64,000 bases of DNA from a virus: positions 1 to 64,000 of the IMG/VR virus record IMGVR_UViG_3300032282_006516; one strand, given 5' to 3'. The notes below the pieces were generated by a model. The model ran no database searches and was not told where the DNA came from. It saw only the letters and a list, made by a program, of their open reading frames with translations. A program made the translations under genes and the position numbers. This document shows positions 139-55,361 of the stretch, piece after piece. Numbering within the stretch: position 1 is the first letter of the stretch; each line of letters begins with the position of its first letter.

Positions 139-345
139 TCAGCGACCGTAGTTCCCGGTCTCCAGAGCAGCCTGCGCAGCTTCTTCCGTCTTGTAGTACC
201 CCGATTCTCGGGAGTACGGACCACAGTCACAGCGCGTACCGATGTAGTACCCGCCGCCCGAGTGGTGGACCTCCAGCACAAGGTGCACGTCGCAATCCTC
301 GCACACTCGGGGTGCTCCCGACGCGAGGGTCTCACCGTGCATCAT
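139..345 (-). CDS. Small phage hypothetical protein (CxxC, YYIG..C.CGPYSRESGYY)
   Basis: 68-aa ORF overlapping the end of the upstream gene; followed by a terminator. Confidence 0.6.
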   Translation of the reverse strand: MMHGETLASGAPRVCEDCDVHLVLEVHHSGGGYYIGTRCDCGPYSRESGYYKTEEAAQAALETGNYGR

Positions 346-604
346 CGGTGACCTCCTCCGACTCTTCCTTCATCCCCGTGTAGAGGATGAGTTGTCCGTC
401 GTTGTCGAAACCCCAGTCCCAGCCGTGCATGCTGGCCAGGGCCTTGAGCTGCTCGACGTTTTCGGGGAGCACGAAGGCCCGCTTGATGTTCTCGCCGACG
501 CAGGGGTTGTACCCCTCGCCGTCGCTCTCGACCAAGACGGCCTCACTGGCGAGCGTGTACGTCGGGTCGTTTTGGCTGTCACTGAATGCGATGTAGAGGG
601 GCAT
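332..604 (-). CDS. Hypothetical protein
   Basis: 90-aa ORF; ATG 3 nt after the upstream stop. Confidence 0.6.
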   Translation of the reverse strand: MPLYIAFSDSQNDPTYTLASEAVLVESDGEGYNPCVGENIKRAFVLPENVEQLKALASMHGWDWGFDNDGQLILYTGMKEESEEVTDDAR

Positions 605-607
605 GAT

Positions 608-1003
608 TTACCTCGGCCAGATGTACGGAACGTCGGATGGAACGGTCGGGAAGAACTGCCGGTAGTGCTCTGGCAGCTTCCGAACCAAGTTGGATTGGTG
701 CGCCAGATGAAAGGCGGAGTCGCCTAGCCAATCCGGCTTTTGCGTGCAGGAGAAGCGCGCCGCCTCGACACGAATCTTGTCGAGGCAGCTGTCCTTGTAG
801 CCCCGAGCTACCCACTCACGGCACACGGCGATGCCGTACTCCGCGAGCTGAAACTCGAAACCCCGCCACATGCGTGAAGCGGGGTGATTGAGCCACTGGC
901 CTCGGAGAAGCTGCAGGACTTCAACCCGCTGCTTCCCGAGGCGTTGTCGGTCGAGAACTTTCGCCGACGTGGCGAAGTCCTCGTAGGGGAGAAACGTATT
1001 TAT
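608..1003 (-). CDS. Pyrimidine-dimer DNA glycosylase-like protein (DenV/MSMEG_6728 type); apparent ATA start
   Basis: The frame reads NTFLPYEDFATSAKVLDRQRLGKQRVEVLQLL..HPASRMWRG..HQSNLVRK..Y..WP upstream of the tracked ATG at 871. The codon at 1003-1001 is ATA and overlaps the upstream TAA. Confidence 0.8.
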   Translation of the reverse strand: MNTFLPYEDFATSAKVLDRQRLGKQRVEVLQLLRGQWLNHPASRMWRGFEFQLAEYGIAVCREWVARGYKDSCLDKIRVEAARFSCTQKPDWLGDSAFHLAHQSNLVRKLPEHYRQFFPTVPSDVPYIWPR

Positions 1004-10202: not shown

Positions 10203-11015
10203 TTAGATTTTACCTTTGAACGCGCCTGGAATCCCGATGCCGAAGTGCTCTCCCTTCGGCTTGGCGATGTCCGCAATCGAAGGGCCGGGCGGAGCCGTTA
10301 CCTTTGGCGCGCCAATGTGCTGTGTCTTGCTGAGTTGGCCACGCGGGGAAGAGACGTTTGCGTGTTTCTGAACTGCGCGGCTCAGGATTGGAGCACGAAA
10401 CGCCGGTATGTCGCTCTGTTGCCGGTGCGCGCCGCCAAACTGGCCATTCCAAGAAACGGCGGGCGACACGTCAGCTTGCTTTCGTAGTTCTTCGACAAAG
10501 ACCGCTAGTTGCTCCGTGGAGGTATCACGAAGTGCTTGCGCCTTCTTCTCTATCGCGCGCAGCTTCTCGTAGTACTGCGGGTCTTCGGTGAGGTGGTCCA
10601 TGGCGATGGAACGAGCAAGCGCATGTCGGCTCGTGTGCTCGTGCTCGATCTTCTCACCCGCATTGAGTTTCTTGGCGGGGAAATCACTTTCGGTCTTGTG
10701 CGCCTTCGACGCCAGGCCGCCAGGGAGGGCGGTAATCCCTCCCGCATTTTTCTGCACGGCGGTATCCAGGCGCGGCTGGCGCCAACCCGGTAGGTCGCTC
10801 GCCATCATGAAGTTGCCGCGTGTTGGAGCACTCGCAGCTTCTTTCACTGCGAACGAGCCGGTTTTCTGAACCGGAGCGCGCAGTGAAGGCACACGCATCG
10901 GAGGCAAGTCGCTCGCCCCGCTCAGAATGACCGGATTGAGAGGCGTTGAGTACTGCGACGTGGTGAACGCCGTCTTCGTCAACGCGCCTAGCGAGGCAAA
11001 AAGCTCAGAGCGCAT
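10203..11015 (-). CDS. Putative head internal protein with DUF5661-like domain
   Basis: GEKIEHEHT..IAMDHLTEDPQYYEKL; linkers TKTAF, VKEAA, EKKAQ, FVEELRKQAD, QKHAN. Confidence 0.6.
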   Translation of the reverse strand: MRSELFASLGALTKTAFTTSQYSTPLNPVILSGASDLPPMRVPSLRAPVQKTGSFAVKEAASAPTRGNFMMASDLPGWRQPRLDTAVQKNAGGITALPGGLASKAHKTESDFPAKKLNAGEKIEHEHTSRHALARSIAMDHLTEDPQYYEKLRAIEKKAQALRDTSTEQLAVFVEELRKQADVSPAVSWNGQFGGAHRQQSDIPAFRAPILSRAVQKHANVSSPRGQLSKTQHIGAPKVTAPPGPSIADIAKPKGEHFGIGIPGAFKGKI

Positions 11016-11017
11016 GG

Positions 11018-12475
11018 CTACTCCTGGAAAAAGCGCAGAAGCTCGTCCGAAAAACCGCCAAATTGCGCAGCTTCTTTCGACTTACCGAGAAGACTACGTC
11101 CCTTTGCGGCAAGACGCGCGGCGTCCTCCCGATTGTGCGGTGTGGGTTCGCCCCAAGCCTGCGCCGAGAGCGCAAGACGCGTCGGACGGCCCTTCTCGTC
11201 CTCCATCGGCCCGCGAGGGTTCGTGAAGAAGCGCGTGAGGAAGCTCCCCTTGCGCTTTGCTTTCTCGCCCGTTGGATTTTTCTCCTTCACGCCCGGCTTG
11301 AGGTGCGCACCCTCTTCACGAGCGAAGTGTGCCCGACCTGCCGCCGTCAACCCGCCGGTCGCCGCGTGCTGCTTGTCCGCGCCCACGGGGTTGCGCTCCA
11401 GCTCCGCAATCTTTTGAACTTCGTGTACGAAAGCCGCGTACGTCGCCGAAGAAATCTTGCTCTTGAGCGGCATCCCCTGAAGCGCTTCGTGCGAGCGGGG
11501 CTCGATGTAGGAGTGAACCTGAGACAGGTTCTCGTGCGCCGAGGTGATGTGGTCGCTCACCCAAGGCGGCAGGTGGTCGTTCGGGTGAATCGCCCGAAGC
11601 ATGTCGCCGGACATGTCCATCAAGTGGTGAAGACGCGAAAGCGTCATCCCGCCTTCCGGTTGCGGCTCCGTCGCCGAAGGGTCGTGCTGAAACTCCAGGT
11701 GTTCGGCGGCGCTTTTAACGCGCGCGGCAGTAGTATTCGGCACGATTTCCTTACCCTTCCGGTCGCCTTCGACCTTCTTCTTGTCCGTAGCGAGTTGCTC
11801 TTTCTTCGTGAGCGACTCCCACTTGTCCTTGGGAAGATACCGGTGCGTCACGCCACCACGCTCCGCCTTTTCGGGCGTACCGGGGCGCGTCTGCCAGTCC
11901 TGCTTCGTCCATTTGGCGAGGCTGTTCTTGGACGCGGACGGCTTCTTGCCAACGTACTTACCGCCCTCGGACTTGTACTTCTGTACCGCGAGCTGCGCAG
12001 CGCGGGCCGACCATTTACCGCCCAACTGCGCCTTGGCCTCGCTCTTGGCCTTCGACCACAGCTCGGGATTCTTCTTCGTCGCGACATCGGGCCCTTCGGC
12101 GGAAGCCGTGACCAGCTTGCCGCCCAACGGAGCAAGGCGGTCGATTCCCTTTTCCAGCCCCTTTTTCGCTGCCAGGTACGCTGCCGAGATGCCCGGAACC
12201 GGCACGGCCGTCATCGGAATCATCTCGGGATTTTCAATCAGCGCATGCGCCCCGCTCTGGAGCGCGCCACGAATCTTCGGGTTGGCGACTCGTGAGAGAA
12301 GATTCGTCGCCTTTGCCTTGAGCGGCTCCTGAACGCGCTGAAACGCCCCCTCTACACCCTGTTGGAGAGCCGCAAGTTCCTCTGGCCCGCGCTCACGCAT
12401 CAGAAGACGCGGCGTGTTGGGGATGTCTGTGGCGCCGAGGCGCACAAGACGCTCAAGAAGGGCCTGCTTGTCCAT
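11018..12475 (-). CDS. Modular putative head protein (DUF5872-like, EGGM..WVSDHIT and DUF6321-like modules)
   Basis: KWSARAAQLAVQKYKSEGGKY and RYLP; GGLTAAGR..LKPGV..RKGSFLTRF; ATG at 12475 in a TAATG overlap. Confidence 0.6.
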   Translation of the reverse strand: MDKQALLERLVRLGATDIPNTPRLLMRERGPEELAALQQGVEGAFQRVQEPLKAKATNLLSRVANPKIRGALQSGAHALIENPEMIPMTAVPVPGISAAYLAAKKGLEKGIDRLAPLGGKLVTASAEGPDVATKKNPELWSKAKSEAKAQLGGKWSARAAQLAVQKYKSEGGKYVGKKPSASKNSLAKWTKQDWQTRPGTPEKAERGGVTHRYLPKDKWESLTKKEQLATDKKKVEGDRKGKEIVPNTTAARVKSAAEHLEFQHDPSATEPQPEGGMTLSRLHHLMDMSGDMLRAIHPNDHLPPWVSDHITSAHENLSQVHSYIEPRSHEALQGMPLKSKISSATYAAFVHEVQKIAELERNPVGADKQHAATGGLTAAGRAHFAREEGAHLKPGVKEKNPTGEKAKRKGSFLTRFFTNPRGPMEDEKGRPTRLALSAQAWGEPTPHNREDAARLAAKGRSLLGKSKEAAQFGGFSDELLRFFQE

Positions 12476-14826
12476 TACCAACCCTTCCCGCTTGAATCCT
12501 TAGGAGGTTCAGGAGTCGCGACTTCAGGTGTGGGATTTTTCTTCCAACCATCACCCTCCACCTTCGTCTCCAGTTGCGCAATCTGGCGGCGCATGCGCTT
12601 CAACTTTTCCGCGTCGCGTAGTTCGTTGTGCGCTCGCACATTTTCAAGCTCATTGAGCGCAATCATGCGGCGGTACTTATCCAAGTAACCCGTACCAAGA
12701 GCGCCAAGCGCATGTGCGCCCGCCGTAGCTGCAGCTAGTCCAAGCGCCCTTTTGTTTCCCAGCAAGAGCGACTCCGCCATTGGCATCGCGCTCACACCTG
12801 TCCGTAGTGCGATGGATTTGCCGATAGTCTTCCAGTCCAGATTTTCCGCACCTTCGCGGAGTGCATTTTCTTTGGCCGGGGTCTTGAGTGCTTGTCGGGC
12901 CAAATCACGCCCTTCTGCCATAAGGTTAGACTGTCGGCCCTTTGCTATAAGATGACCGATTGCACCACCGGCAAGCCCACTGACCGCCGCCGCCGCGGGG
13001 TGCACTTGTTGCATCAAACCGGCACCAATTGCCACGCCTGGAAGCGTGTAGGCCAGCTCTGCCGCAACGCGCGGTTTCCACGAAGAGGAAAGCTCCTTCG
13101 AGGCCTCCGTCGTAGCAATCGCAGCCTTTTTCTCTTGATTAGGCAACAGCGCACGGAACTGGTTAATGAGGTCTTCCTTGCTCTTCGACATTTGAGCGAG
13201 GTACTCATCAACCGACTTATCCGGCTCACGCCCGACGAGTTTGTTACCTAGCCTCGTAAGCGTCCCTTCCGGGCGAGAGGCCAAGTAGTTCTCAATCAAC
13301 AACTTACGCTTTTCGGGCGGCAAGTCGGCATGGCTCATGTACCGCGCGCCACGCCCTTCCACCTGCTTGAGTTTCTCCGCATTCCAGTGCGGCTCCAGAA
13401 TCTGCATGAGGCGCGTGCCCTTGAGGTCTAGGCCCTCTCCTCCAGCTGAAGACAAGAGCAAGGTACGCAGCTTCCCTGCATTGTAGTCTTTGACGAGCTG
13501 TTCCCGCTTCTTGGAGGGCATGCTCCCGGTGAACTCACCGTAGGGAATCTTCGCCTCGTCGAGCCGGCGCTTGTAGGGGTCAATCCCCGCCGGCAGGTAG
13601 TTAGAGTAGACGACGGCACGCGACGTAGGGTCCTGCGCCAGAGTCGCCTGAAGGCTCTCAAACGCCTTTTGAATCTTCGGGTCTTCGGCCTTCGTTCCCG
13701 CTGGCACAAACGGCGCCGTGGTATTCGTCGCCTGTCGCGCCGCGCCCAAAAACGCGTTCAACTGTTGTGACTCCTGCTTACTCGGCGGGAGTCCACGCTT
13801 GACCTTGGCGGCAACCCAGGCAGGGGCTTGCCCCATAAGCGTGTCGTACACCTTGAGCTGGTCCGGCGTCATCGGCACGCGCACATCTCGGCGCTCGACT
13901 TCGGGAAAGTTTTCCGTACTTCCGGGGTGGAAATCTACCCACTTCTTGAAAACGTCTCGAAGCTCAGGTGCGGTCTTTTGGTAGAGAACCGGAACTACAC
14001 CCGGCTTGACCTTATTTTCATCGGAACGCACCAGGTTGGCGGCCCGCTGGAATAGACTCGGGTTTACCGCCTTCTCCGTGATGTATCGGCGCGTGAACTC
14101 GTCCTTGTCGTAGGGCAGGACTTTCGCGTCCGCGGCCAAGTCGATAAGCGGCGCGATGTCCGAAGGATGGTTGTAAAAAGGGCTGCCCGTAAGAAGAAGG
14201 CGCTTCTGACTGGTGTTTCCTTTGAGCGTCTGGAACGTCGCGGAACCCGGATCACGCGCACGGTGTGCTTCGTCCACAACCAAGAGGGGCGCCGTAGGAG
14301 AGACCCCTTTCGTCGCCATGTTCTGCATGGACATGAGCGACGCGGGAGGTGTCTTCCCCTTCAAATGCTTCGCTCGTTCTTTTTCGTAGTTTCCCAGAAG
14401 GGCCGCGGGCGCGATGACCTGCGACGGCTGACCCAGTGCATCCTGCGCGGCGATGCTGGTTAGCGTCTTTCCGGAACCAAGGCCGTGAACTACAAGAAGT
14501 CCAGGCTGATTCTCTTGCTGGATGCGGTCAACGACGCGTTGCTGGTGCGGCAGCAACGCCGTTGAGACTGCGGCAATTTTGCCTAGTTCATCCGTAAACC
14601 CGGCCAGCGACGCGCGCTTGCTGTCGGGGTTCGCCGTGTGTTCGTCGTCTTTAGGAGTGTCGTACTTGGCCTTTGCCGCACGACGCCCCTCTACGGTGCC
14701 GTAACTTTTTGGTGTCTTCCCGAGAGAGTGGCTCTGCTGCGTTGCGATAGCCCAAGCCTGGGACTCCGACATTTTCGGGTTACGCGCCATCAGATGCTGT
14801 GCACGGTCGTGAATCCACTTGGGCAT
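12475..14826 (-). CDS. SF2 (SNF2/D6-D11-like) helicase with N-terminal tag and C-terminal hydrophobic domain
   Basis: HGLGSGKT, VVDEAH, LLLTGSP, SSAGGEGLDLKG, ILEPHWN..QVEGRGARYMSH. Confidence 0.9.
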   Translation of the reverse strand: MPKWIHDRAQHLMARNPKMSESQAWAIATQQSHSLGKTPKSYGTVEGRRAAKAKYDTPKDDEHTANPDSKRASLAGFTDELGKIAAVSTALLPHQQRVVDRIQQENQPGLLVVHGLGSGKTLTSIAAQDALGQPSQVIAPAALLGNYEKERAKHLKGKTPPASLMSMQNMATKGVSPTAPLLVVDEAHRARDPGSATFQTLKGNTSQKRLLLTGSPFYNHPSDIAPLIDLAADAKVLPYDKDEFTRRYITEKAVNPSLFQRAANLVRSDENKVKPGVVPVLYQKTAPELRDVFKKWVDFHPGSTENFPEVERRDVRVPMTPDQLKVYDTLMGQAPAWVAAKVKRGLPPSKQESQQLNAFLGAARQATNTTAPFVPAGTKAEDPKIQKAFESLQATLAQDPTSRAVVYSNYLPAGIDPYKRRLDEAKIPYGEFTGSMPSKKREQLVKDYNAGKLRTLLLSSAGGEGLDLKGTRLMQILEPHWNAEKLKQVEGRGARYMSHADLPPEKRKLLIENYLASRPEGTLTRLGNKLVGREPDKSVDEYLAQMSKSKEDLINQFRALLPNQEKKAAIATTEASKELSSSWKPRVAAELAYTLPGVAIGAGLMQQVHPAAAAVSGLAGGAIGHLIAKGRQSNLMAEGRDLARQALKTPAKENALREGAENLDWKTIGKSIALRTGVSAMPMAESLLLGNKRALGLAAATAGAHALGALGTGYLDKYRRMIALNELENVRAHNELRDAEKLKRMRRQIAQLETKVEGDGWKKNPTPEVATPEPPKDSSGKGW

Positions 14827-44344: not shown

Positions 44345-44649
44345 AGGAGCACCTCGATACCGGCCACCCGCGCACGGCGAAGCAGCACGTCCCGACGACC
44401 GCCCTGACGCCACACGCGGCCGTCCGAGATGTCGAGGAAATGCGTACCGTCCTGCGTGCGCAGGCGCCCCGTCAACGGACCTTCGGACACCGGCTGTTCA
44501 GCCGGAGCGGTCACAACAATCTGCGAACCCAGAAGGTTCAGCATGTCCTGCGCGGCCGTTTGAATTGCAATCTTAACGTACGCTTCCAGGTCATCGACGA
44601 AACGAAGAACGTGCGGCGCGATGGACTGGTTCAGTTGCTCGTGTGTCAT
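44341..44649 (-). CDS. Hypothetical protein
   Basis: 102 aa; overlaps both neighbours by 4 nt. Confidence 0.65.
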   Translation of the reverse strand: MTHEQLNQSIAPHVLRFVDDLEAYVKIAIQTAAQDMLNLLGSQIVVTAPAEQPVSEGPLTGRLRTQDGTHFLDISDGRVWRQGGRRDVLLRRARVAGIEVLL

Positions 44650-46004
44650 GTGAACTCCTTGTGGTCGGAAGATTGCAGCCGGGACACGATAATGCCCACG
44701 CGCTCAAGAAGTTCAAGCGATTCTTTTCGCCGGTAATCTTGGGCGTACCAAACGCGCACGACTCCACCGAGATTGATGAGACGTTTCGCACACATCAAGC
44801 AGGGCAGGTGCGTGCAGAAAACAATCTTCGGCGTGTCGCGGGGCACGTCGCAGTTGATGACCGCGTTCTCTTCTGCGTGAAGGCAGTTTTGCGCTACCAT
44901 GCCTGCATTCCCGGCGGCGTACCACCCCGACCGGGTCTGAAGGTTGTACACATGGCCCGCCCACTCCTTGCGCTCGATGAGCCGGACCTTGTTCGACGCT
45001 ACCTTGAGGGGGACACTGTTCTGTCCCTGGCAGCGCGGTACAAGGTCTCGCACACGACCATCCAAAACCGCCTGCGCAAACACGGCGTCCTTCGCCAAAT
45101 GGCCGAGGACCTGCGCCGGCATAAGAGCGCCTCGCGGCTGCGCCTCCCCATCGAAGACCTCGTGCGCCGCTACAACGCCGGAGAATCCGCCAACGGCCTC
45201 GCGGCTGTATTCCACGTAAGCCGTGGTGCTATCGAACGCCGTCTTCAAGAGGCGGGAGTTCTCGACATCGAGCGGCGAACTACGCGCCGCTCCCGACGGG
45301 CGCGCGAAGTCGATGGCCGAGTGCGCCGGGCCTTGAACGCCGAGAAGCGGGGGACGCTCCAGGGCAGCGGGGAGGCTTGGTTGGTCGAAGAGACACAGAA
45401 AGCCGGACTCTTCGTAGAACCTCAGAAAGCAGTCGGAGGATACAACCTCGACCTCCTGGTCGAGCACACCGTCGCCGTGGAACTGATGACGGGCGCCAGC
45501 ATGCCGTACCAACCGGCCCGCTATGGCGAGCGACTCAAATACCTGCTCGACAGGCACACGCTTTTGGTCGTGTGGAGCTGCGGACGACACACCCTCGTCC
45601 CAGCAGGCGTGCAAAAGCTCGTCGCCCTCTTGAAGAGTCTCTGCAGCAACCCAACCCCGCCCAAGCACCAGTACTGGGTGATTCGGGGTGACGGTGAAGT
45701 CGTCGTACGCGGTGACCAGCCGTACGACCGTGCCCTCGTACCAGCGGCGGTACGCGCGTTCGACCGACAGTGCCGTCGTAAGCGTACCTGACACAAAACA
45801 GCCACAGTTTCCTACCGCGGCTTCACCGTGCACGTCGCAGTCGTTGTCGCACCCTGCCGCGTTGCCGTTGTACCCGACAGCCAGCACCTTTCTGAAATCG
45901 GGCGTAACAATCGCGCAACCCACACGCAGGCGACGACACGTCGAACGCTCGCTCATGCTGGAAGCGAGACGCATGTAAATGTCTTGAAACGAAGGACGCA
46001 TCAA
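44646..46004 (-). CDS. dCMP deaminase interrupted by an intein
   Basis: N-extein STCRRLRVGCAIV..GYNG..GNCG; C-extein CLHAEENAV..HLPCLMCAKRLINLG. Confidence 0.92.
   Translation of the reverse strand: MMRPSFQDIYMRLASSMSERSTCRRLRVGCAIVTPDFRKVLAVGYNGNAAGCDNDCDVHGEAAVGNCGCFVSGTLTTALSVERAYRRWYEGTVVRLVTAYDDFTVTPNHPVLVLGRGWVAAETLQEGDELLHACWDEGVSSAAPHDQKRVPVEQVFESLAIAGRLVRHAGARHQFHGDGVLDQEVEVVSSDCFLRFYEESGFLCLFDQPSLPAALERPPLLGVQGPAHSAIDFARPSGAARSSPLDVENSRLLKTAFDSTTAYVEYSREAVGGFSGVVAAHEVFDGEAQPRGALMPAQVLGHLAKDAVFAQAVLDGRVRDLVPRCQGQNSVPLKVASNKVRLIERKEWAGHVYNLQTRSGWYAAGNAGMVAQNCLHAEENAVINCDVPRDTPKIVFCTHLPCLMCAKRLINLGGVVRVWYAQDYRRKESLELLERVGIIVSRLQSSDHKEFT
44886..45800 (-). mobile_element. Intein, 305 aa (CFVSGT...VAQN, +1 Cys)
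   Basis: Block A CFVSGT, block B TVTPNHP, WVAAETLQEGD, block F HVYNLQT, terminal QN followed by C. Removing it restores GNCG-CLHAE. Confidence 0.92.
44952..45791 (+). CDS. Antisense-encoded tandem-HTH plus Vsr/DUF559-like endonuclease nested in the intein
   Basis: GAAGG RBS and ATG; two DLVRRY..L.A...VS...I..RL...GV repeats; GSGEAWL..EPQKAVGGYNLDLLV..VAVE. Confidence 0.8.
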   Translation: MARPLLALDEPDLVRRYLEGDTVLSLAARYKVSHTTIQNRLRKHGVLRQMAEDLRRHKSASRLRLPIEDLVRRYNAGESANGLAAVFHVSRGAIERRLQEAGVLDIERRTTRRSRRAREVDGRVRRALNAEKRGTLQGSGEAWLVEETQKAGLFVEPQKAVGGYNLDLLVEHTVAVELMTGASMPYQPARYGERLKYLLDRHTLLVVWSCGRHTLVPAGVQKLVALLKSLCSNPTPPKHQYWVIRGDGEVVVRGDQPYDRALVPAAVRAFDRQCRRKRT

Positions 46005-46309
46005 AGGGCTCCTCGGGCGGCTAAAACTTCGCGCATCACATCCCGTGCGTAGTCACAAGCGCGGCGCTGTACGCGCCACGCAAGCGGGCTACCGGCGTAG
46101 GACACCCCAAAAACTTCGGGGCGTGTGAACTCCTTGTCGTAGTGCTGCGGTCCGTCTTCACGCGACGGCCACACCACACGCAGCGTGAACTCCCCGTCCT
46201 TGCCGGGAAGAAAGTCTACGGACGTAGCGTAGGTTGCGCGCCGGATAGGGTCGGCCCACCCACGCAGCTGCCCGCAAAGAGTTTGAAGAAGTACCGTACC
46301 TCGGTCCAT
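46001..46309 (-). CDS. Hypothetical protein
   Basis: 102 aa; ATGA overlap with the deaminase. Confidence 0.65.
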   Translation of the reverse strand: MDRGTVLLQTLCGQLRGWADPIRRATYATSVDFLPGKDGEFTLRVVWPSREDGPQHYDKEFTRPEVFGVSYAGSPLAWRVQRRACDYARDVMREVLAARGAL

Positions 46310-46318
46310 ACTGCCTCC

Positions 46319-46771
46319 GTGGCGCGCGACCTACGGTACATCACGAGCGAACGCTTTATCCACGATGACCTCGCGGCACGCGCGGCTGACATGGCGAAGG
46401 AAGCTCTACAGCAGTGGCGAAAAGAACGCCGCATCGAGAGCTTCGCCATCAGCTGGCCCAGCGAGCACATCGTTGGAGACGACGGTTCGACCATCACGCA
46501 CGCGGTGCTTATGCCGCTGCGCGGTGACTTAGACGAAGGGGCGAAGCACGCAGCGCTGACGCGGATGGTCGAGAAGACCAAAGCGTACGGACTCGTCGTG
46601 ATTGAGCGTCGTCAGAACGAAATCCGCGTGCTCTTTGAAACGCACCATGGCGCCCGAGCCTGGATTACTCCGCTCAAGCGCCATGGGGACCTCCTTGTTC
46701 CTGGGAGGACGCAGGTGCGCGATAACGCCGAGTGTCTGGGATTTCTCTGGCGTCCGCAGCTCGTCAGCTAG
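46319..46771 (+). CDS. Hypothetical protein (start GTG 46319 or ATG 46391)
   Basis: Protein-like composition; TTGAAG-N18-CATACT at 46283-46312 upstream. Confidence 0.6.
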   Translation: MARDLRYITSERFIHDDLAARAADMAKEALQQWRKERRIESFAISWPSEHIVGDDGSTITHAVLMPLRGDLDEGAKHAALTRMVEKTKAYGLVVIERRQNEIRVLFETHHGARAWITPLKRHGDLLVPGRTQVRDNAECLGFLWRPQLVS

Positions 46772-51976: not shown

Positions 51977-52201
51977 TTACTCCCTCACCTTGGAGGTGTA
52001 GTCTCCCCCGAGGTCTTCGTACACGTTCAGGGTCTTACCCGTGTCGAACGTCGCAGCGACGCGGAGGAGACCGACATCCGCTCGCGCAATCTTCTGAAGA
52101 AGAACCGCCTCCAACGAGGAAACGCGCGGCGAACCGAACCGCTCCTCCAGAGCGGCCCGGCCCACCACCTCAGCGGCAAGTTTTCGCAGTTCAGTACTCA
52201 T
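51977..52201 (-). CDS. Small protein with ELRKLAA/LQKIA motifs
   Basis: ATG at 52201; lies between sheath and tube. Confidence 0.55.
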   Translation of the reverse strand: MSTELRKLAAEVVGRAALEERFGSPRVSSLEAVLLQKIARADVGLLRVAATFDTGKTLNVYEDLGGDYTSKVRE

Positions 52202-52217
52202 TGAGCGCCCCGGCACA

Positions 52218-55200
52218 CTAGATGGTGAGGGTCAACCGAATGTAGTTGCAGGGGAACGGAACATCGAGCGTCACGTCGATCAGCACCGTGTCGGGCGCCG
52301 TCGTGTCCTGCACGATGTTGTTGAGCTGCGACCCAATGAGCACACCCGAATCCGCGAGGAAACCGAGCAGGCCTTGAATGACGTGCCCAAGGCTGTCGAG
52401 GAAGCCCTGCGTGATGTTGAACCGCCCGATGAAGTTCTTGAGGCCCTGCCGCAGGAACTTCGCCGTGAAGTCCACCACCTTCGTGATGGAGTCCGTGCGC
52501 GTCTCGATGCTGGTCATGTCCGTCGTCAGCGCCATGCGGCTGATGAGGGGCGTGCCCGTCGAGTCCTGCACGATGACGTAGTTGCCGCCCGCCGCCATGA
52601 CGTTGAGCTGCCGCTCGCCGAAACGGTCGTTCGACCCAATGACACGGGTGAACCCCGTCATCGGGAAGTTCGTGAACGACTGCTGCGGAGGCTGCTGACC
52701 AATCATGCCCGCCACCGCGGCGTTCATGTAGAAGCCCTCAACAATCTGCTCGATGCCCTGAAGGGTCGCCGCAGCCTTGTCCGGGAACGTCGACCACACG
52801 CGGCGGCTGGCGTAACCCTGCGCCATCTGCTGCACCGTGAGCGCCGTACCCTCAAGGTCCGGCGACCCATCGAGGAGCACCAGTGCCGCACCCCGAATGC
52901 GCACCGCGAACGGGTCGCTGATGAGGGGCGTCGGAAACGCGCTCGTCGCGTAGTAGCCGTCGTCGTTCTCGCCCGGGAGGAACCCAGACGTCTTGAGCAT
53001 AACGACGCTGCCGACGACGTTGACGATGTTGTACTTCTTGCCGTCGCCAATATCGAGGTAGATGCCCGCCGACGTAGCGTACGGACCCGAACTCGTCAGG
53101 CCCTGCGCCACGAGCAGCGCGCCGAGGTTGGACACGCCCGTATCAAACGTATCCGGCGTCGGCGTCGTGTTGCCGTTCGCGCCCGACGAGACGAGCGTGT
53201 CGAGCTTGTGGGTCGGCACCTCCGGATTGATGAGCACAATGCGTTCGCCCTTGTTGGCCGGCGCGCTCATCACCGAAACGTGCGTGCTGAACACCTGGAA
53301 GACGGTCGTGTCGTGCGTCAGAGGCGCAAGAGCGTAGACCTCGTAGCCTTCGAGGAACGTCGCTGCACGCGTGTACGCCTCCACCGTGCCGTACGGCGCA
53401 GCAGGCGTCGCCGAATCCACGCCAAGCGCCGTAACCTGCACGCCCGGGCTGTTGAGCAGCGCGAAGTACAGACCGAGGGCGAGCGGGTTGTCGACCGTGA
53501 TGGGCGACAGCTGGCTGGCAAGAGCCGTCGTGTCGCCGAAGCGGAGCAGGCCCGGATTCGTCGCACGGGGCGACACGTCGAGGCGCACCGCCTTGTACGC
53601 AAGGTAGAGCGTAGCGCGCGAGGGGTACGACGGATTACCGCGCGGATCGCGAACCACCTCAGGAACAATCCGACACGCACCCGTGCCAGAGTCCACAACG
53701 AGGTTCGGATACGGGCGCGAGATGCCAGTCGTCGCTGACGACGCCTTGAGCTTCTGCGCCTCGATGTACCAGGCCAGGCCCACGTTGCTGGAGATGGGAA
53801 CCTGCTTGTCGATCTTCAGGTAGCTGACGTTGCCGCCAGGAGCCACCTGAGTGACCGTCGCGTACGAGATCCCATCCACCCAAACGCGGTCACCCGGAAG
53901 CGGCTTGAACGGGTTACCGCGCACCGTCGTCCCAGCCGTAAGGCCGAGCGTCGCGCACGCCGTTCCGCTCACAACCTTCATGATGGAGGTGGCGCCGAGC
54001 GTGATGTTCGTGAGCGCGAGATTGCCGCCGCCCGTAAGCGTAGCAACCGTGCGCCCTTCCGACGCCGCGCCGAAGAGCGCGTTGATCTGCGTCAGCACCA
54101 GGGCAGGGCTCGACGCACCCGAGAACGTGAGCGTCTGCGGCTTGTCGCCGTCGTCCAGGGTTAGCGTCTCGCCGTCCGGAACGCCGCCACCCGGAACCGC
54201 AATCGTGCCGACAATCTGCCCAGCACCCGGAGACGCCGTGAAATCGGCGCCCGTGAACGCGAGAAGCGGGGTCACGGCGGTGCCGTTGCCGCTGTCGATG
54301 GCACGAACACCCGAAACGCCGTACGTCGTACCCGCAACCAGGCCGACCGTCAGGTTGGCCGTTCCCGCGCCAACCTCAATGCTGGACTCCGGGCCAAGCG
54401 CCAGCGTCGTGATGCGGAGGAAGTTGGTGGTGGCGTCGTAGGACGCCGTAGCCACCGCACCGATGACCGCATTGATTTCCGCAAGGGCAATCGCGGTGTT
54501 CGCCGGAGCGCCGAACGTCACCGTCAGCGGCGACGAAGCACCGTTGAACGTGAAGATGAGCGTCTTGCCGCCGAGGTCGAGCGGGAGAGTCAGCGTCGTC
54601 ACGTCGACCGTACCCACCACCGTCGCGGCCGTTCCGATGCCGTTGCGGAGGAAGGCTTCCGTCTGGAGAAGCTCCATGAGCGTCCCGCCCGTTCCACCCA
54701 TGAAGAGGAACGCGCGAACCGACGGAGGCTCCACGACGAGCTGCGAAAGGTTCGCGTTCGGGTCGGGGAAGCTGGCGAACGTGATGTCCGTGACGTGCTG
54801 GTCGTAGTACGTCGAGCCCGTATAGACCTTGTCTGCACCGAACCCAAACGCAGCCAGAACGACAGGCGAGCTGGCGGCCAGACCCGTTCCAACCACCTTG
54901 ATGGTCTGGAAGTCGTTTGCGGCGTACGAACGAATCCGCCAGGACATGCCGTCCGGGGACACCTCCGCCGTAAACGCCGTCACACCCTCGTCACTGAACG
55001 CCATGAGCACCTGCGCCACGACCTGCGCCGGCGTAAGGGGCTCACCGCTGAACGTGATGGTGATGTCCGGGCCATTGTTGAGCGACACGACGAGCGAGAG
55101 GCTGTCGAGGCCCGAGTACACCGGAGGCGTTCCCACGGCGTCCATCGCCTGCGCAATCGCGTTGAGCGACACCAGCGCTTGCGGATTGAGCACCGACGCA

Positions 55201-55346
55201 CCCGCGCTGTTTTGCACGAGAACGTCAACGACCTGCCGACACACCCCCACAATGCAGGGAACGAGAGTGGGCGTCACAACGGTCGGCGTGACCGTCTGGA
55301 AGACTTGAATGACCTCTACCCCCGGGCGGGGAAGCTCAGCAGCCAT
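52218..55346 (-). CDS. Contractile tail sheath protein
   Basis: N-terminal LPRPGVEVIQVF; C-terminal SITKVVDFTAKFLR..VLIDVTLDVPFPCNYIRLTL. Confidence 0.9.
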   Translation of the reverse strand: MAAELPRPGVEVIQVFQTVTPTVVTPTLVPCIVGVCRQVVDVLVQNSAGASVLNPQALVSLNAIAQAMDAVGTPPVYSGLDSLSLVVSLNNGPDITITFSGEPLTPAQVVAQVLMAFSDEGVTAFTAEVSPDGMSWRIRSYAANDFQTIKVVGTGLAASSPVVLAAFGFGADKVYTGSTYYDQHVTDITFASFPDPNANLSQLVVEPPSVRAFLFMGGTGGTLMELLQTEAFLRNGIGTAATVVGTVDVTTLTLPLDLGGKTLIFTFNGASSPLTVTFGAPANTAIALAEINAVIGAVATASYDATTNFLRITTLALGPESSIEVGAGTANLTVGLVAGTTYGVSGVRAIDSGNGTAVTPLLAFTGADFTASPGAGQIVGTIAVPGGGVPDGETLTLDDGDKPQTLTFSGASSPALVLTQINALFGAASEGRTVATLTGGGNLALTNITLGATSIMKVVSGTACATLGLTAGTTVRGNPFKPLPGDRVWVDGISYATVTQVAPGGNVSYLKIDKQVPISSNVGLAWYIEAQKLKASSATTGISRPYPNLVVDSGTGACRIVPEVVRDPRGNPSYPSRATLYLAYKAVRLDVSPRATNPGLLRFGDTTALASQLSPITVDNPLALGLYFALLNSPGVQVTALGVDSATPAAPYGTVEAYTRAATFLEGYEVYALAPLTHDTTVFQVFSTHVSVMSAPANKGERIVLINPEVPTHKLDTLVSSGANGNTTPTPDTFDTGVSNLGALLVAQGLTSSGPYATSAGIYLDIGDGKKYNIVNVVGSVVMLKTSGFLPGENDDGYYATSAFPTPLISDPFAVRIRGAALVLLDGSPDLEGTALTVQQMAQGYASRRVWSTFPDKAAATLQGIEQIVEGFYMNAAVAGMIGQQPPQQSFTNFPMTGFTRVIGSNDRFGERQLNVMAAGGNYVIVQDSTGTPLISRMALTTDMTSIETRTDSITKVVDFTAKFLRQGLKNFIGRFNITQGFLDSLGHVIQGLLGFLADSGVLIGSQLNNIVQDTTAPDTVLIDVTLDVPFPCNYIRLTLTI

Positions 55347-55361
55347 CAGCGGCTCCTTTCA

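Follow-up and report, generated by a model that had tools for sequence, protein, structure and literature searches.

Inteins that carry a complete homing endonuclease gene on the strand opposite to their own have already been described. Gosselin, Arsenault and Gogarten (bioRxiv 10.1101/2025.01.02.630785, 2025; October 2025 version) reported inteins with an "anti-sense VSR-like HEN" (HEN, homing endonuclease) in actinobacteriophages. The HEN matches Vsr over residues 144-267 and, by HHpred, 3R3P, and the non-canonical hosts named there are the genes for DNA polymerase, minor capsid, terminase and thymidylate synthase. The same preprint cites antisense LAGLIDADG endonucleases in inteins (Ssp DnaX and others; Gorbalenya 1998, Gogarten et al. 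2002). A Vsr-like endonuclease as a gene of its own in an intein locus is also known from the fractured genes of phage-like DNA, where a free-standing nuclease gene lies between the halves of split inteins (Dassa et al. 2009, PMC2677866). Here we analyse an intein in the deoxycytidine monophosphate (dCMP) deaminase gene of a large phage and the predicted nuclease gene that lies antisense to it, both encoded in a 64,000-nucleotide (nt) stretch (positions 1 to 64,000 of the IMG/VR virus record IMGVR_UViG_3300032282_006516; hereafter the window). The whole record measures 121 kb, with a CheckV completeness of 65%.

The layout is that of the preprint inteins, namely a contiguous intein with a complete antisense endonuclease open reading frame (ORF) inside, and there is sequence homology to the members found in Gordonia phages. 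The window locus differs from them in its host gene, dCMP deaminase, which is neither among the 19 intein hosts of that survey nor among its four non-canonical ones, in its bearer, a large uncultured relative of Virus Rctr197k and not evidently an actinophage, and in an antisense ORF whose overlap further takes in splicing blocks A to N4 and block F. With the antisense LAGLIDADG inteins, as the preprint presents them, it shares the principle of an endonuclease ORF opposite the intein, the nuclease family being different; in contrast with the fractured genes, the intein is contiguous and the nuclease gene antisense, with an overlap of ~840 nt. The novelty implied by the original prediction, which was made from the window alone, does not extend to this layout, which is already in the preprint and which, according to that source, has been on record for LAGLIDADG inteins since 1998. 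What is new is the dCMP deaminase host, the two occupied sites held by one nuclease clade, the measured partitioning of constraint between strands and the start signals that lie within block F. No mention of start codon, ribosome site, promoter or codon register came up in a term search of the preprint, and our search of the literature for an intein in a dCMP deaminase found none, which is no proof of absence.

The features of the locus are the following:

44646-46004, minus strand: ORF of 452 codons, from the ORF list
44646..46001, minus strand: dCMP deaminase precursor gene including the intein (PF00383, E 3.5e-15; phrog_174, E 4.8e-32)
45801..46001, minus strand: N-extein, ending in ...AAVGNCG, joined to the C-extein as GNCG-CLHAE
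44886..45800, minus strand: class-1 intein, 305 amino acids (aa), with Cys1, block B T38-x-x-H41, block F His283, terminal Gln-Asn and +1 Cys (phrog_15127, E 9e-26)
45669..45698, minus strand: intein block B, FTVTPNHPVL (intein residues 35-44), antisense to the nuclease motif QYWVIRGDGE
44646..44885, minus strand: C-extein including the stop codon, beginning with CLHAEENA (catalytic HAE) and with an intact PCLMC zinc motif
44952..45791, plus strand: predicted antisense homing endonuclease gene, 279 aa, sharing the codon triplets of the intein
44939..44954, plus strand: nuclease translation start signals, GAAGG (44939-44943), an 8-nt spacer and ATG, antisense to the block F N-L and His283 codons
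44979..45251, plus strand: two helix-turn-helix (HTH) DNA-binding modules, nuclease residues ~10-43 and 67-100, antisense to the unconstrained middle of the intein
45357..45713, plus strand: Vsr-like PD-(D/E)xK nuclease domain spanning residues 136-254, in which D167 and E177 are invariant

We consider it very probable that this locus is a mobile class-1 intein in a large-phage dCMP deaminase, whose homing endonuclease would be a separate gene read from the opposite strand of the same codon triplets. The identity of the host gene is clear, with a PF00383 score of 56.2 bits against a cut-off of 25 and both CLHAE and PCLMC present. Removal of the intein in frame restores CGCLHAE, the conserved catalytic and zinc motif (compare the uninterrupted GACGCIHAE of locus L004 and GNCGCMHSE of Virus Rctr197k, locus L001), and the exteins without the intein are 64-66% identical to the deaminases of these two. 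The original prediction had described the minus-strand intein from CFVSGT at 45800 to VAQN at 44886 with blocks A, B and F, the +1 Cys being that of CLHAE, and a plus-strand ORF with an ATG start and a stop 9 nt from the N-terminal junction. These coordinates and motifs are as it described them, the stop being a TGA, and its GAAGG ribosome-binding site can now be placed at 44939-44943. The exact codon register that it had noted also holds, with QYWVIRGDGE antisense to FTVTPNHPVL: plus codon position 1 is minus codon position 3, and nuclease residue i lies opposite intein residue 284-i. The nuclease gene fills the slot after block N4, which is the usual place of in-frame endonucleases, its first ~10 and last ~60 codons reaching into the splicing blocks (A to N4, F), where the intein frame dominates. 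The final ~35 residues of the Vsr-like domain are antisense to blocks N4 and B.

ORF length alone means little in this genome, and we caution against reading the open plus frame of the window as evidence of a gene. At 61% guanine plus cytosine (GC), its openness in the window alone is not above chance, since many of its long ORFs have in-register antisense open runs of 300-505 codons. In-register antisense open frames of 424-505 codons shadow other long genes in the window, for instance 52098-53735 (plus strand) versus 52221-55358 (minus strand) and 10967-12292 (plus) versus 11021-12499 (minus). Codon-position GC in the window cannot separate the two frames either, intein-frame positions 1 and 3 both being at ~0.72. 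The plus frame might then be no gene at all, but a shadow that stays open through the rarity of TTA, CTA and TCA in a GC-rich sense frame, with homologues that mirror an in-frame domain of the intein; nuclease motifs that are antisense images of intein motifs (QYWVIRGDGE and TVTPNHPVL; VAVE/YNLD versus FHGDG..EVEVV) agree with such a view. Since the open plus frame of the window is not significant by itself, the case for coding rests on the relatives.

These relatives come from a profile-seeded scan of IMG/VR, which gave 401 relatives; 80 viral loci, with GC 0.41-0.73, were retained. None of the 80 has a stop in the in-register minus frame within the match, and this frame runs into a host ORF of 300-1,265 aa; the other two minus frames contain 2-37 stops. 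TTA, CTA and TCA, which would stop the plus frame, are absent from the 22,080 overlap codons of these loci, compared with 464 occurrences in 30,871 extein codons. Both frames are open even in relatives with 41-47% GC, which a shadow would hardly explain, and the chance of finding no stop per locus at 41-55% GC ranges from 7e-2 to 5e-10.

Conservation was measured on a codon-by-codon alignment of 84 sequences. Over nuclease residues 11-220, which correspond to intein residues 64-273, conservation in the plus frame is about double that in the minus frame (typical mean pairwise identity 0.36-0.46 versus 0.17-0.24), whereas at intein residues 15-54 and 275-293 the minus frame is ahead; in the block B region both are highly conserved (0.65 in plus, 0.70 in minus). 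The pattern is unchanged whether the alignment is built on the plus or on the minus translation, which argues against a mere mirror of an intein domain. In the middle of the element, identity between the window and L004 is 48% for the nuclease frame and 31% for the intein frame. Four close pairs of sequences with 82-95% nucleotide identity tell the same story at the level of substitutions: codon differences silent only in plus outnumber those silent only in minus by 69 to 17 in the HTH zone and by 53 to 9 in the nuclease core, and the ratio is inverted on the block B/A side (9 to 18) and on the block F side (1 to 8). These patterns indicate that dual coding is real and that constraint is partitioned between the strands, the nuclease frame being under purifying selection over residues 11-220 and the intein frame constrained only at its splicing blocks.

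A second signature lies in the start signals. In the alignment, the column antisense to the block F His holds ATG in 59 sequences or GTG in 4, that is, a start codon in 63 of the 84, and several of the remainder are merely misaligned. A GGAGG-like Shine-Dalgarno (SD) motif stands at -13 to -8, antisense to the block F Asn-Leu-Gln codons; the window has GAAGG where GGAGG is typical of the family. The block F His is encoded by CAT in 65 cases and by CAC in 6, compared with 497 and 718 elsewhere in the same ORFs (p 3.5e-18), and the block F Leu by CTC in 52 of 69 cases, against 28% elsewhere (p 2e-15). The putative SD and ATG of the nuclease gene are formed by the antisense of the Asn-Leu and His codons in block F and are kept by codon choice, which argues that the antisense ORF is translated. 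The open frames, the substitution bias and the codon choice refute the shadow reading for the family and, together with the independent Pfam and Protein Data Bank (PDB) matches to HTH and nuclease domains and a confident fold (see below), make it highly improbable for the window. As a side observation, three loci (L028, L035 and L047) have ATA instead of ATG in the start column, the intein His becoming Tyr, and L028, L035, L046 and L077 have TAA where the SD would be; the nuclease genes of these five loci may use another start or be decaying.

The protein itself looks like a DNA-binding nuclease. An AlphaFold2 (AF2) model based on a 41-sequence alignment reached a pLDDT score (predicted local distance difference test) of 87.4 and comprises two HTH modules of three helices each, one long helix and a domain of alpha/beta type; it was used in place of a single-sequence AF2 model, which was poor (pLDDT 51). 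The profile of the family matches the tandem-HTH protein 2lvs (1.3e-9) and the DUF559-like endonuclease 3hrl (2e-4). PF18741 (REase_MTES_1575) is matched by 24 of the 41 relatives at E<=0.01 (best 2.5e-9) and DUF559 by 3; the window nuclease scores 13.3 bits against the REase_MTES_1575/DUF559 profiles, for a Pfam cut-off of 38.2. A plain Foldseek search with the nuclease model returned nothing at E<=1e-3, and VIA-align of Foldseek candidates supports a Vsr-type PD-(D/E)xK fold. D167 and E177 are invariant in the nuclease alignment (A1), with E141 nearly so, and the window protein keeps all invariant or near-invariant residues of the family, including E141, Q158, N165, D167, E177, R194, P234, G246 and G248. 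The profile searches and the model establish that the two HTH repeats and the nuclease core proposed originally are real. Of the Vsr-like (EDxHD) nuclease that had been proposed, the Vsr-like fold stands and the literal EDxHD motif does not, only D167 and E177 being invariant. Likewise, no stop was found in the plus frame of the homologous inteins examined, the start signals are conserved, and the reading of the endonuclease as a separate antisense gene rather than an in-frame domain is borne out by the database relatives (see below), the fold and the purifying selection on the plus frame.

I-Bth0305I resides in a group I intron rather than on the antisense strand of an intein. The EDxHD nucleases to which it belongs and Vsr (3R3P, 1VSR and 1CW0) are 13-19% identical to the window nuclease, whose relatives are nearer, at the sequence level, to Pfam REase_MTES_1575/DUF559. 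One apparently free-standing ORF is related in part: at positions 259-957 (plus strand) of locus L115, opposite an in-register frame that is open for only 60 codons, the N-terminal HTH region is 46% like the window nuclease over residues 1-103 and the C-terminus carries HNH-like motifs, which suggests that the DNA-binding module has been shuffled between nuclease types.

Given two HTH modules, the antisense protein could act mainly as a DNA-binding regulator, or its gene as the source of an antisense RNA that controls the deaminase, a transcript over the whole intein being able to pair with the deaminase mRNA; regulation of the deaminase was a secondary idea of the original prediction. We regard this alternative to a homing nuclease as scarcely credible, given that no other part of the plus frame is as conserved as the nuclease core with its acidic residues and that the same gene sits in inteins of unrelated hosts, which fits a mobile element and not the regulation of a single host gene. 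Among 69 host ORFs we found Phage_Mu_F (36), VG15 (7), minor capsid protein 2 (5) and deaminase (1), and portal genes are also among the hosts.

The family of the plus-frame protein is large: phmmer retrieved 1,796 matches at E<=1e-3 from 1.84 billion representatives, 479 of them at E<=1e-10. A word-indexed protein search with the nuclease gave one relative, and the single window protein as query found no related loci in viral contigs; relatives are presumably few in protein searches since gene callers seldom call the antisense ORF. By tblastn, 41 of 50,697 phage records were matched, from phages of Gordonia, Pseudomonas, Rhodococcus, Mycobacterium, Escherichia, Vibrio and Idiomarinaceae. The features annotated under these matches are host genes only, the nuclease gene being annotated in none of the 41, and the match lies opposite the annotated host gene in the three phage records opened. 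In the Gordonia phages Fosterous, Affeca, Vivi2, Angelicage, Keitabear and Sedona the matches are antisense of MuF genes (E 7e-14 to 8e-5).

On the minus strand, the splicing residues C1, T38, H41, N305 and the +1 Cys are all present in the window intein, as is a block F of sequence GHVYNLQT that contains His283; C1, T38, N40, H41, P42 and N305 are invariant across 39 relatives. The profile of the family (A3, 39 members) matches only inteins among solved structures (Pho RadA, 4.6e-9; MJ0781, 1.3e-8; Mtu RecA, 7e-8; PI-PkoII, 4.3e-7), and the best single-sequence PDB match of the window intein is the NrdJ-1 intein (E 0.087), which stems from the fractured-gene study of Dassa et al. 2009. Most of the 81 family members begin with Cys (73; Ala in 8), and the endings among 81 relatives are HN (57), GN (7), SN (6), RN (5), QN (4) and KN (1). 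Eight related inteins (L006, L007, L012, L027, L032, L049, L051 and L054) start with Ala (AE[LVI]xGN) and keep the antisense nuclease gene; they may belong to a different splicing class. Seven other related inteins end in GN with a +1 Thr.

Several observations, besides the uninformative openness of the plus frame in the window, weigh against our interpretation. The IMG/VR scan was seeded on YRVIRGxGE, the antisense of block B, so that its sample is biased to intein-embedded members. Both the literal EDxHD motif and an invariant His are absent from the nuclease alignment, and for this reason the catalytic mechanism may differ from that of I-Bth0305I and Vsr. The penultimate residue of the window intein is Gln, shared with L085 and a few other family members, and not His, which is usual in inteins and not obligatory. 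Taken alone, the window intein falls below curated cut-offs (PF14890, 20.1 versus 35.8 bits; TIGR01445, 15.1 versus 24.5). Because of these last two points, we infer its splicing competence from the family conservation together with its intact catalytic residues. A simple sigma-70 scan of both strands over 44400-46100 found no promoter, a negative of no informative value for a phage without an assigned host. Finally, we found no nearly identical pair of intein-plus and intein-minus alleles, so that recent homing is unsupported.

Some of these points would also suit a nuclease that was once active and is now unexpressed or unable to cut, with an intein inherited vertically and an ORF kept open through recent ancestry only. 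Apart from the missing promoter, the GAAGG in place of the usual GGAGG and the lack of a close intein-minus allele of the window deaminase, it could appeal to several VSR-like cases that look vertically inherited according to the preprint (bioRxiv 10.1101/2025.01.02.630785). A relic of this kind is unlikely in our view: besides the retention of all family residues, the ORF, ATG and SD are intact, and the site-1 lineage (see below; the window, L085 and L086) has diverged to ~50% identity with full-length ORFs kept, which needs long-term purifying selection.

We favour an active mobile element, which could operate as follows. Translation of the deaminase precursor would pass through the antisense image of the nuclease gene, which is free of stops, and this linker would leave with the intein on splicing; because the host frame must stay free of stops through the middle, the nuclease gene would avoid TTA, CTA and TCA codons. 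The nuclease would be made from a plus-strand transcript of its own, as the selection on its frame and its start signals suggest. By analogy with homing endonucleases, it would recognise the intein-less CGC-xHAE coding site of a co-infecting relative through its HTH modules and cut it, and recombinational repair would then copy intein and nuclease gene together. This proposal is consistent with the polymorphic occupancy of two sites in the deaminase. The window, L085 and L086 (both loci from the metagenome scan) and L087 carry the intein at site 1, ahead of the Cys in C-x-HAE, and have no intein at site 2, ahead of the second Cys in PCxxC; in L004 and in Virus Rctr197k (L001) the occupancy is the reverse, with site 2 filled and site 1 empty.

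A quick IQ-TREE maximum-likelihood tree of 78 nucleases groups the five from deaminase hosts in a single clade with a Shimodaira-Hasegawa-like approximate likelihood ratio test (SH-aLRT) support of 100, within which a site-2 pair (SH-aLRT 99) and a site-1 trio (85) separate. A single colonisation of the deaminase followed by a switch of site fits this tree, which is not proof. That one lineage colonised the phage dCMP deaminase once and then moved between the HAE-adjacent Cys codon and the second PCxxC Cys codon is a tentative proposal, about which we are rather undecided. The nucleotide likeness of the two target sites is confined to the Cys codons, and we make no claim that it drove the switch. 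The site-2 member of Virus Rctr197k (KX853510.1, gene Rctr197k_003; L001 616-2025, minus strand) is annotated as a 'putative head morphogenesis protein' and is a dCMP deaminase with a homologous intein and antisense nuclease at PCxxC; the label was probably propagated from similarity of its intein to MuF inteins.

The surroundings of the gene add a few observations. The likely ATG of the deaminase (46001-45999, minus strand) overlaps the TGA of an upstream ORF (46001-46309, minus strand) as TGATG, and this overlap at 45999-46004 suggests translational coupling of the two. A terminator-like hairpin is predicted on the minus strand at 45800-45822, exactly at the junction of N-extein and intein; with one such hairpin found and 1.6 expected in shuffles, it is probably due to chance. 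On the plus strand, the ORF 46142-46771, whose adjoining genes are on the minus strand, is clearly homologous to an ORF in the corresponding syntenic position of L004 (3565-4383, plus strand). It is thus a real plus-strand gene ~350 nt downstream of the nuclease gene, with which it could share a plus-strand transcript.

If the function predicted from sequence is right, ~840 nt of phage DNA encode two proteins on opposite strands, with the control of selection passing from strand to strand along the element, a clean natural example of dual coding. For annotation, the value lies in an antisense nuclease gene missed in 41 of 41 records and in a deaminase mislabelled as a head morphogenesis protein. 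The deaminase cases extend the layout from the structural and replication genes of actinophages to a nucleotide-metabolism gene in large uncultured phages. If the single colonisation and the move between sites are true, they would provide two naturally occurring, closely related HTH-Vsr nucleases between which the target site has switched and, with the start signals in block F, a tractable system in which to study the retargeting of a dual-coded mobile element.

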